In this document: positions 6,301 to 9,300 of the stretch, piece by piece
Layout: each line of letters starts with the position of its first letter
Numbering within the stretch: position 1 is the first letter of the stretch
From: Amoebidium appalachense
Taxonomy: Eukaryota > Protista > Ichthyosporea
Assembly: GCA_963693365.1 (NCBI GenBank)
Contig: CAVNZM010000013.1
Location: forward strand, 6,376,640-6,440,639
DNA length: 64,000 nucleotides
Direction of reading: 5' to 3'
Program-made: the position numbers and the translations under genes
The notes under the pieces: generated by a model
Told to the model about the DNA's origin: nothing
What the model saw: only the letters and a program-made list of their open reading frames with translations
Database searches by the model: none

Positions 6301-9300
6301 CTCTTGTTTATGTGCATGGTGTTTGTGTACTTGTTTTGTGTATGGTGTGTGTGTGTGTGTGTGTTCATGTGTTTTACGCTGTTATAAAATTTGTGTTCTG
6401 CGTCTGTGCCCTCCTTGTGCATGTGTGCTTGTGTGCGCCCCCCCCCCCCCCCCCCCCCCCCCCACCCACCCACCCACCCACCCCCCCCCTCCCCCCGGGG
6501 CAGGGGGAGGGGTTGTTCTTCTGGTGTGTGGGACACCCTGGTTTGGCTTTGTCCTTTCGTGATAAGTGGCTCCTATTTGCACCCCCTCCCCCGCCCCCTC
6601 CCCCCCCCCCCCCCTTCCCCCAAAAAAGGAGCACCTCAACCCTGCCGGCGTTGCCCTTGCTTTTGAGTCCTTCTTGTACGTCATATCACTTTTCTACCCC
6701 CATACCTCCCCCCCCCCCTCCCCCACATCTTACTTCCATGCAACCGGGCATGGTTGCTCTGTGTCGTGCATCTGTAAGCACATACGCGTTTTTCGCTGCA
6801 CTGCATTAGTTTGCACACACATCTTCACCGTTTTGCTCACCTTGCTTGCATAAGCAACCCTGCTCGTCTTTGATCAAGACGGGTTGACCCACCCAAGTTC
6901 AGTTGATGCTGCTGTCTGAGTTGGAGCGTCGTATATACGCTGGCTAAGGATCGAAACTCAGACGCAATTGATGACTTGGGCCCTCCCTGAGGATGGGCTC
7001 TGCTTGTGACGCATACTGTGCACATGGCTGATGTTGCATACTTGAATGTTTGCCTTTGCATGTGTCCTGCACCATGCTTCTCATCGTGTATGCGTACTTT
7101 GTACTGTATTCCGCATTCAAACCCCCCCTCCTCCCCCTTTCCCTCCCCCCCCCCCCCCCCCCCCCCCCCCCTCTCCTGGCAACCGAAGAAACAGAACAAC
7201 GAAGACCATATCTGAACTACGCACATGCATAAGCGCACATAGGTCATACCAAAACCCCGAACTAATAATCCATGACCACTATGCAACACACTTACCCGCA
7301 CACACACACACACACACACACACACACACACACACACACACACACACACACACACACACACACACACACACACACACACACACACACACACACACACACA
7401 CACACACACACACACACACACACACACACACACAGGTTCTGGTACACAGATGGTGCTGAGATCGTTTACAATCTCATTGCCCCAATCATCTACGGGTATA
7501 GCCCCCCCCCCCCCCCCCCGTCCCTGTACACACACACACACACACACACACACACACACACACACACACACACACACACACACACACACACACACACACA
7601 CACACACACACACACACACACACACACACACACACACACACACACACACGTACCAAATGTTCCATCTTGTGTCCGTAAAACCATATCCAAAAAGAAAAGC
7701 ATACGAGTCAATGTGCCGCGCTCTTTTCCTTCATTCCTGAGCGCTGAAACATCCAATATCATCGCCATCATTTGCACTAACCACATGACTGTACCCCCTG
7801 TTCCGTTATCACCAACCCTTTGATTTTATTTTTAGTTTTAAATAAATGATTTAAAATTTTAATATCACGTCTGTGTGCAGGCTGGTGCTACAGTGGATAC
7901 CTCGACCCCGTGCCCAGATCGACCAATTAATTCACTTTGCCTGCCGCATGATGGCTCCCATCGTTCCGGATGCCTTCCGAGTACGTAACAACCCCCCCCC
8001 CCCCCTCTCCCCAACACACACACACACACACACACACACACACACACACACACACACACACACACACACACACACACACACACACACACACACACACACA
8101 CACACACACACACACACACACACACACACACACACACACAAAAAAAAAAAAAAAAAAAAAAAAAAAAAAAAAGGAAAAAAAAAAAGAAAGAAAGAAGAAG
8201 AAAAAAAAAGGGAAAAAAAAACTGATTTGACCCTTTCAACCGTAGTTTAACCAACCACCGCTTCTTCCAATTTAGCGTCTGGGCGCTGACCACCCCGAGA
8301 GCCACATTTCTCAAATGTGCCTCACCAATCAAGAGATTCCATCAAATTGTGTCACATGCCGATGTCGACATTCGACAGAGCAGTTTCTGGCTACACGGCG
8401 TCATGGAATTTGTGCATAGAATGACGTCACCAATGTGGCTCCCCGCCCAGACGCTAAAATGGAAGTAGCGGTGGTTGCTTTTATTTATTTTTTATCATCC
8501 CCGAATATCTTCAAGGATATGTATGTTGTTTACCCTCTAGATGTCTCCAAAATTTAACCTTCCATATTAAAAGGATGACACTAGCCCCCGAACCCTGACC
8601 CCCCCCCCCCCCCCCCCCCCCAAAAAAAAAAAAAAAAAAAAAAAAAACCATACGTCCAATCAAACCCATTCCCCTTGCTTTAATACTGACATACTATTGG
8701 TGCAGGGCATTGCTACCCGATTAGGCAACTCTCTAGATCTGATCTTGGAGCTGTGGCCTGTGCTCCCTTGTGTCCCCGTCCTGCTCATGGCTGGTACCTC
8801 CCCTCCCCCCCCCCCCCCCCCCCCCCCCACCACCACCATTTCATCTGTCCACTTCTGCATACCCCCTTTCATAGCTATAGACACACTTCACACATTGTGT
8901 TACGCGCACGCATGCACACACCGCTCTGTTAGCGACAGCTCCCTTGGAACCCATGCGGCATGTTACCCGCGGGCGTAACATAACTCGGACTATCGATTTG
9001 GCTTTTTTCAAGCCCAAAGCAATGGGTGATACCATTTTCCGGCTGACATCCGGGGGCATAGCTTTCCGTTCGAAGACGTTAAAAGTTCCGCCCTAGTAAG
9101 CGTGTTACTACCCTGCGGCGTGGGTCAAATCTCATATTTTCCCCTCTGATTGCGAATCCTGCGGCCTTCGGGACTTAATTCTTTTCAGCTGGTGTAGTAT
9201 GTTAGCCAGGGAAGTATCGACTTAGGTAGCGATGGGGGAGCTTCCTAGAAGCCCCGTCTCTTGAGTTCCTATCTATATTTTTCTTGCTTCTGCTTACTGC

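Follow-up and report, generated by a model that had tools for sequence, protein, structure and literature searches.

We analysed 64,000 nucleotides of genomic DNA from the ichthyosporean Amoebidium appalachense (GCA_963693365.1, contig CAVNZM010000013.1, positions 6,376,640 to 6,440,639 of the forward strand), called the window below, which consists of microsatellite-rich eukaryotic DNA. A sequence-only reading had described in it a repeat folding as a pseudoknotted hammerhead, one copy of which (copy A) would carry compensatory changes in stems I and III. Is such a fold kept by selection in this repeat, and how are the stems around its core connected?

Direct reading of copy A places the GUU triplet at 6920-6922, UCGAAAC at 6951-6957 and CUGAGGA at 6987-6993. 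Stem I comprises the pairs G6923-C6986, G6924-C6985 and A6925-U6984, with a possible fourth pair (G6926-C6983), and stem III pairs 6913-6920 with 6957-6964 as had been written; the hairpin after stem I, reported as differing in sequence but not in place, is present with GCGU at 6926-6929 and ACGC at 6937-6940. All elements of a hammerhead core (CUGAnGA, GAAA, NUH, A15.1-U16.1 and G10.1-C11.1) were found in copies A, B and D, copy E having G8A, and stems I, II and III surround this core with covariation, that of stem I being weak when taken alone and stem II of copy A being mismatched at pair 3. The CUGAGGA motif, said to be unchanged, is so in A and B only, since D has CUGAUGA (the variable N7) and E has CUGAGAA (G8 lost). 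The blocks follow the order cleavage block, GAAA block and CUGAnGA block (S-G-C), which is not a circular order with a nested three-way junction, and the repeat belongs to none of hammerhead types I, II and III. Copies A, B and D are 65-77% identical within the motif versus 48-56% in the flanks, and the core motifs are unchanged in all three. About 100 nt upstream of the ribozyme region, B and D have in common a G-rich/C-rich hairpin-like stretch (9232-9256 and 4950-4973), the remaining flank around it being near 50% identical. The window gave no Rfam match at gathering score, and a search of 4700-9700 up to an E-value of 10 gave 12 unrelated weak matches, none of them a hammerhead. Coordinates of the helices and of the copies used are listed below.

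Features of the repeat in the window (positions in the window; helix positions refer to copy A)
Feature	Position	Strand	Remarks
Copy A of the repeat	6727..7121 (5' boundary approximate)	+	nhmmer 6708-7126; contig cover over all of 6740-7120; poly-C tracts on either side; common 3' end at 7121; C-run begins 199 nt past the predicted cut
P0 5' strand	6849..6860 (distal 6849-6856, proximal 6858-6860)	+	partner 6995-7008; two double changes in copy D
P1 hairpin	6862..6884	+	8-nt perfect palindrome at centre, 6870-6877; inner pair A-U in A and B, G-C in D
Stem II 5' strand, split-core model	6886..6890	+	G10.1 = 6886; 14/15 pairs in A, B and D, slid 2-7/15
Strut 5' strand	6892..6905	+	partner 6965-6980 (7 + 7 bp)
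Stem III strand and GUU triplet	6913..6922	+	predicted cut after U6922, placed by analogy with the hammerhead core
Stem I strand 3' of the cut site (GGA, A6925)	6923..6926	+	
P2 hairpin	6926..6940	+	10-nt perfect palindrome 6930-6939
Block G	6948..6964	+	stem II 3' strand (private lesion 6950), GAAA 6953-6956, stem III strand
Strut 3' strand	6965..6980	+	
Stem I strand (U6984) and CUGAGGA	6983..6993	+	C3 = 6987, A9 = 6993
P0 3' strand	6995..7008	+	6996-7001 doubles as the stem II strand of the canonical SGC alternative
Copy B ribozyme region	9339..9500	+	all stems paired; element from before 9180 to about 9586
Copy D ribozyme region	5056..5213	+	divergent subfamily, 65% identical to A and B; main source of double changes
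Copy E	49245..49457	+	decayed (G8A, stem III and strut pairs broken), lacks the 5' part
B-type copy, 5'-truncated	51186..51348	+	
B-type copy, 5'-truncated	24117..24261	-	
B-type copy, 5'-truncated	50114..50237	+	
B-type copy, 5'-truncated	4806..4910	+	directly before copy D
Old, decayed, 5'-truncated copy	32715..32886	-	

The stem I change from GGG/CCC to GGA/UCC had been described as a double change explained by the pseudoknotted hammerhead model. Its letters are as claimed: between copy A and copies B and D (both GGG/CCC) the third pair goes from G-C to A-U at positions 59 nt apart. The copy C of the earlier reading is taken as one of the full copies, because the copy at 51186 lacks that strand. 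As evidence, it proved to be the weakest piece. By itself this double change is no more than expected by chance, because it consists of two transitions (P = 0.17 from 100,000 trials of random substitution) and because the G-run pairs with the C-run nearly as well when slid (7, 8, 8, 9, 8, 8 and 5 of 9 pairs for registers -3 to +3). The case is carried by stem III, stem II, the strut and P0. For stem III, the register was fixed by the core (A15.1-U16.1) rather than chosen from the sequences, and the first eight pairs are formed in 24 of 24 cells across A, B and D, versus 3-13 of 24 when slid. One double change separates A from B, accompanied by three single changes that keep a wobble; A and D differ by three double changes and B and D by four, most of them stemming from copy D. 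The corresponding P values of 0.017 (B to A), 0.005 (A to D) and 0.002 (B to D) are not independent, as the simulation treated copies pairwise, and they assume 60% transitions. Stem III is the strong case, its covariation exceeding chance. Pair counts rest on the three full copies (A, B and D) and were made by coordinates; apart from stems I and III, the helices had been selected in these very sequences, which biases the P values given for them below towards the model and makes them optimistic.

The differences between copies were then compared with contigs from four runs. At A6925 no variant reaches 2% in the A-type contigs of any run, and GGA in stem I is a subfamily marker. The changes therefore mark subfamilies rather than copy A, and selection would have acted on source elements while genomic copies decay. 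Of the claim that the changes of copy A are compensatory, the kept pairing stands, and their assignment to this one copy does not; similarly, selection on structure, in place of neutral decay, is supported for the source elements, whose history the covariation appears to record, and not for single copies, which decay, copy A included. U6984 reads C in 20, 10, 29 and 29% of depth and a nearby B-type marker in 9, 16, 16 and 30%, frequencies that are per site, as the short contigs do not link 6925 and 6984; the excess of U6984C over the marker in two DNA runs could come from A-C mismatched copies or from other subfamilies. On the copy B side, U replaces C9471 in 44, 44, 32 and 28% of the depth, G9415 has no variant at 3%, and the A-type marker at 9495 makes up 19, 16, 18 and 13% of the depth of contigs on copy B; G-U intermediates of stem I probably exist.

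Copy A itself carries a private lesion, a C6888-A6950 mismatch involving the 3' strand of stem II. Position 6950 is G in 91-99% of contig depth in the three DNA runs covering the site, with loose ends showing one more G, so that copy A differs from the rest of its subfamily at 6941 and 6950 and is one G short at that place, leaving the third stem II pair broken. Because of these private stem II lesions it is a poor assay construct; the window offers two natural copies in which every stem is paired. In copy E, G8 and three pairs of stem III are lost, and strut pairs are broken. Copies E (49245), G (50114), probably R (51061), and C (51186) are found in 48684-51348 amid Myb-like coding fragments of the same strand (a Pfam Myb match in 48684-49220 and a further Myb-like stretch seen by eye at 50509-51018); these copies, all decayed or truncated, probably lie in introns.

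The position of the 5' strand of stem II distinguishes two possible wirings. When this strand is taken upstream, at 6886-6890, 14 of 15 pairs are formed in A, B and D (2-7 of 15 when slid), with two double changes from B to D (P = 0.04). In B-type contigs, U9381C occurs at 2.8, 2.3 and 3.5% and its partner A9435G at 3.7, 2.9 and 4.4% (similar per-site frequencies in each of three DNA runs), and in a small fourth run at 19 and 6%. Part of the 11-bp stem II seen in copy B is private to it, as U9383 is C in nearly all contig depth, and 5-6 pairs were counted. The first five positions of the strut, which begins six bases past G10.1 in A, B and D, are paired in 15 of 15 cases in these copies versus 3-7 of 15 when slid (P 0.03-0.06), and distal P0 has two double changes in D (P 0.03-0.05). 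P0 takes up the strand that a downstream stem II would use. That downstream strand, within 1-2 nt of CUGAnGA, could form 4 pairs in B, 5 in E and 6 in D; it is invariant, shows zero double changes and leaves a C-A mismatch at pair 5 in B, whereas the upstream strand covaries. Helix energies for upstream stem II plus proximal P0 versus downstream stem II are -17.4 versus -5.6 kcal/mol in B and -14.0 versus -10.1 kcal/mol in D, and in D the downstream stem II equals the upstream helix in stability when the latter is counted without proximal P0. Nested-fold z-scores are weak (-1.6 in B and -0.5 in D). Since it is the upstream strand that covaries as the 5' side of stem II, helix P0 and hairpin P1 likely interrupt the CUGAnGA block, separating A9 from G10.1. 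We thus favour, with a probability of roughly 0.6, a split-core hammerhead in which stem II is completed upstream, P0 and P1 are inserted into the core, and cleavage is predicted after GUU. The pseudoknotted, hammerhead-type fold of the earlier reading, with its predicted cut after U6922, finds support in both pairing and covariation.

Using a profile built from four copies, we retrieved 16 copies of the repeat at an E-value below 0.05 and five weaker ones, on both strands of the 64 kb, with a common 3' end and a variable 5' extent. C-runs of seven or more follow 14 of the 16 copies, versus 7% of background positions. The four runs gave 7,631, 8,340, 5,922 and 238 contigs for copy B and 9,774, 7,773, 4,168 and 200 for copy A, which are not copy numbers; the family is plainly very abundant. 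Sharing a 3' end while varying in 5' truncation is the pattern of target-primed retroposition, and the repeat is a high-copy, 5'-truncated, poly-C-flanked, retroposed element, with the ribozyme motif on the RNA strand marked by the truncation, 167-204 nt before the 3' end. Neighbouring copies in the window come from different subfamilies, which nested insertion explains better than pLTRs; a few head-to-tail joints occur in contigs. Three head-to-tail pairs of different subfamilies (4806-5325, 23928-24261 and 51061-51348) have poly-C between them, as if inserted into the C-runs of old copies. Copies are dispersed, mostly truncated and not of type I, in which they differ from non-LTR retrozymes, and a circular-template model is unsupported, since neighbouring copies differ in subfamily and 5' ends show no clustering at the cut. 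None of 12 truncated copies starts at the base after the cut (the nearest lies 3 nt inside), and no loose ends at the cut were found among the 24 listed of about 1,060 and about 700. The C-run at 9468-9474, before CUGAGGA, is a frequent 5' junction, with 74 contigs of one run having poly-C loose ends, which suggests 5' joining by microhomology to a poly-C target.

Among 91 ORFs of the window, picked by length and complexity, we found no RT or GIY-YIG family, and no Chlamys protein was found in the window. The ORF at 8881-9093 upstream of copy B was considered as an RT tail and rejected, as it had no Pfam match and matched only repeat proteins (31 long proteins with summed short stretches). It lies in a 71-codon open frame (8881-9099) in the long 5' extension of copy B that ends in two adjacent stops and lacks a homologue. 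Within the window, ARAGORN detected no tRNA that could be the head of a tRNA-derived SINE. Elsewhere, the window contains a C2H2 zinc-finger protein ORF (40951-41790, minus strand; best matches at 28-39% identity), a low-complexity frame of 1,499 aa (17940-22436, minus strand) and a frame of 569 aa without Pfam or database matches (59776-61482, minus strand). An inverted repeat of 37 nt at 8249-8480, whose arms are 92% identical and lie about 160 nt apart, may represent a small DNA transposon. At 55330-57633 there is a further, separate group of short repeats, related to one another and alternating with G- and C-runs.

Two accessory hairpins of the repeat are palindromic. P2 contains a perfect palindrome of 10 nt in A, 10 nt in B (9418) and 8 nt in D (5134), of a different sequence each time, and P1 one of 8, 6 and 8 nt in A, B and D, with the innermost pair altered in D; an 8-nt palindrome occurs in about 9% of complex 28-nt stretches of the window (501 of 5,463). 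The P2 palindrome is not kept in copies E (only 4 nt) and I, both decayed. Four compensated changes affect P1/P2 loop positions, three of them innermost positions unable to pair within one strand. Template switching copies one inverted-repeat arm onto the other. As the innermost changes cannot arise by pairing within one strand, they point to intermolecular pairing or to template switching, on which our literature search found nothing for RNA hairpins. The palindromes hint at RNA dimers. A more elaborate proposal, which we hold as doubtful, is that the broken core, re-formed where five helices meet and not covered by the six permutations of Eckert et al. 2023, works via RNA dimers to make a template for poly-C retroposition: the RNAs of two elements would pair with each other, cut, and then exchange or re-ligate their strands.

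In the mechanism that we propose, the mutually crossing stems I, II and III would be held together by the strut and P2, keeping stems I and II alongside each other, as a loop-loop contact usually does. This bridging of the far ends of stems I and II is a geometric argument from the gamma-shaped hammerhead fold, as described in part of PMC4209133. The source RNA would fold during transcription, with P0 closing last and docking A9, and the core would cut after GUU. More than 30 bp would hold the pieces after the cut, giving a nicked, re-ligatable RNA rather than separation; products that stay bound would fit both the copies spanning the cut site and the missing 5' ends there, an absence that equally fits slow or no cleavage. 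The repeat may be the 3' end of a Penelope-like or other non-LTR retroelement, or be mobilised by one, the ribozyme processing the RNA of the source element.

We then compared the repeat with described systems, through the portions of the literature cited here. The closest is type SGC (HRIMA-1 and variants), validated in vitro by Eckert, Friedrich, Weinberg and Weinberg 2023 (PMC10085705). It shares the S-G-C order, the crossing stems I, II and III, a full core, and an extra helix joining far stem ends. It differs in that the CUGAnGA block is there assumed to be uninterruptible and stem II follows within two nt of it, whereas here covariation places the 5' strand of stem II about 107 nt upstream and P0 and P1 come in between; in length, about 80 nt versus about 160 nt; and in source, the SGC RNAs in the relevant passages coming from metatranscriptomes and none from the genomes of known organisms save one GCS candidate, whereas ours is a eukaryotic genomic repeat. 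Single- or two-base core insertions and discontinuous stems appear in PMC6765202, PMC13725137, PMC10162972, PMC3088659 and PMC6155905, and PMC13725137 mentions earlier reports of hammerhead variants with additional helices, citing Weinberg 2015; in the sections of these five papers that bear on the core, a helix between A9 and G10.1 is not described, and Weinberg 2015 and the supplements of Eckert 2023 may bear on it. Within the literature searched, the split-core wiring was not encountered. A pattern scan of metagenome contigs returned 3 loci, all dismissed as chance matches in prokaryote-like coding sequence, and one of viral contigs returned 0 loci.

Naiad Penelope-like elements were reported to have no canonical hammerhead, with some cases flagged 'HHR_half_core' (Craig et al. 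2021, PMC8557442, from the parts of paper and supplement used here). By eye, three Naiad consensus records of this supplement have the same strand order at their 3' ends (P0, P1, upstream stem II and strut, then stem III, NUH, stem I and CUGAUGA), with six Watson-Crick pairs in upstream stem II. They stand before the headers Naiad_Ovul, Naiad_Omin and Naiad_Ppla and are Naiad_Obim, Naiad_Ovul and, by table order, Naiad-4_Dst; one was flagged HHR_half_core by the authors and a second probably was, by table order. Naiads were matched at 2 of 17 places with one core term and at 3 of the best 10 of 13 with a shorter term (54 Naiad records in total). They have 5' truncation and microsatellite targeting in common with the repeat, but no sequence likeness to it beyond core motifs; their strut is short, they lack the P1/P2 palindromes, they join stem I to stem II by 1-3 nt where the repeat has a palindromic hairpin, and they prefer (TA)n rather than poly-C, and no Naiad ORF was found in the window. 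Chlamys elements (same source) resemble the repeat in their preference for (C)n and (CA)n, their 5' truncation and their non-autonomous derivatives; in the 3' ends of 8 C. reinhardtii families given there, the split-core motif was not seen by eye. As far as the cited portions of PMC4209133 and bioRxiv 10.64898/2026.07.22.740005 go, the minimal type I hammerheads of Penelope-like elements and non-LTR retrozymes also lie near the 3' end of a retroposed repeat, form dimers through palindromic loops, and tolerate an unpaired base at the 5' end of stem II. They are, however, circularly permuted type I ribozymes, mostly in tandem, with a short stem III closed by a palindromic loop, whereas the repeat has a long stem III, dispersed copies, and palindromes in two accessory hairpins.

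Three other explanations have to be weighed against the split core. We consider it unlikely that the repeat is an ordinary type-SGC hammerhead with stem II formed by the strand two nt after A9, the upstream strand and P0 being a competing, inactive or switching fold. The downstream pairs counted above could serve it, the majority A-type letters would give 6 of them (three G-U), and type SGC, in the cited part of PMC10085705, allows one or two nt at this place and is validated in vitro. Against it, the downstream helix would cost proximal P0, it shows none of the double changes of the upstream one, and at most two such pairs can form in the Naiad records of the same layout.

The split fold might alternatively be conserved but cleave inefficiently alone, acting as a packaging or RT-binding structure at the 3' end, or cleaving only with a protein or as a dimer, which we regard as quite unlikely. 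Copies spanning the site exist (A, B, D and E), 5' ends do not pile up at the cut, P0 and P1 are better conserved in sequence than the catalytic stems, and the minimal hammerheads of Penelope-like elements cleave poorly in vitro (cited portion of PMC4209133). Nevertheless, no core nucleotide, the UH triplet and C3-G8 among them, differs across subfamilies 65% identical, and the core is kept in distant Naiads. That the paired changes are neutral, whether as chance transitions or by template switching between inverted-repeat arms, is very improbable. The stem I change alone would agree with it, and P1 and P2 are local hairpins, the type of site where template switching yields perfect palindromes, but the covariation lies in mutually crossing helices whose register is set by the hammerhead core (stem III P 0.002-0.017), the core motifs have stayed the same between copies whose flanks show near 50% identity, and unrelated Naiad sequences have this layout too.

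If the split-core hammerhead cleaves, the hammerhead core would tolerate a break, with whole helices inserted where it had been assumed uninterruptible, and the descriptors and covariance models in use would miss a class abundant in eukaryotic genomes. It would provide eukaryotic genomic examples of a non-circular permutation known mainly from metatranscriptomes, and a product-retaining ribozyme of this kind would be useful for RNA circularisation or switches. It would also explain the seeming lack of hammerheads in Naiad-type retroelements.
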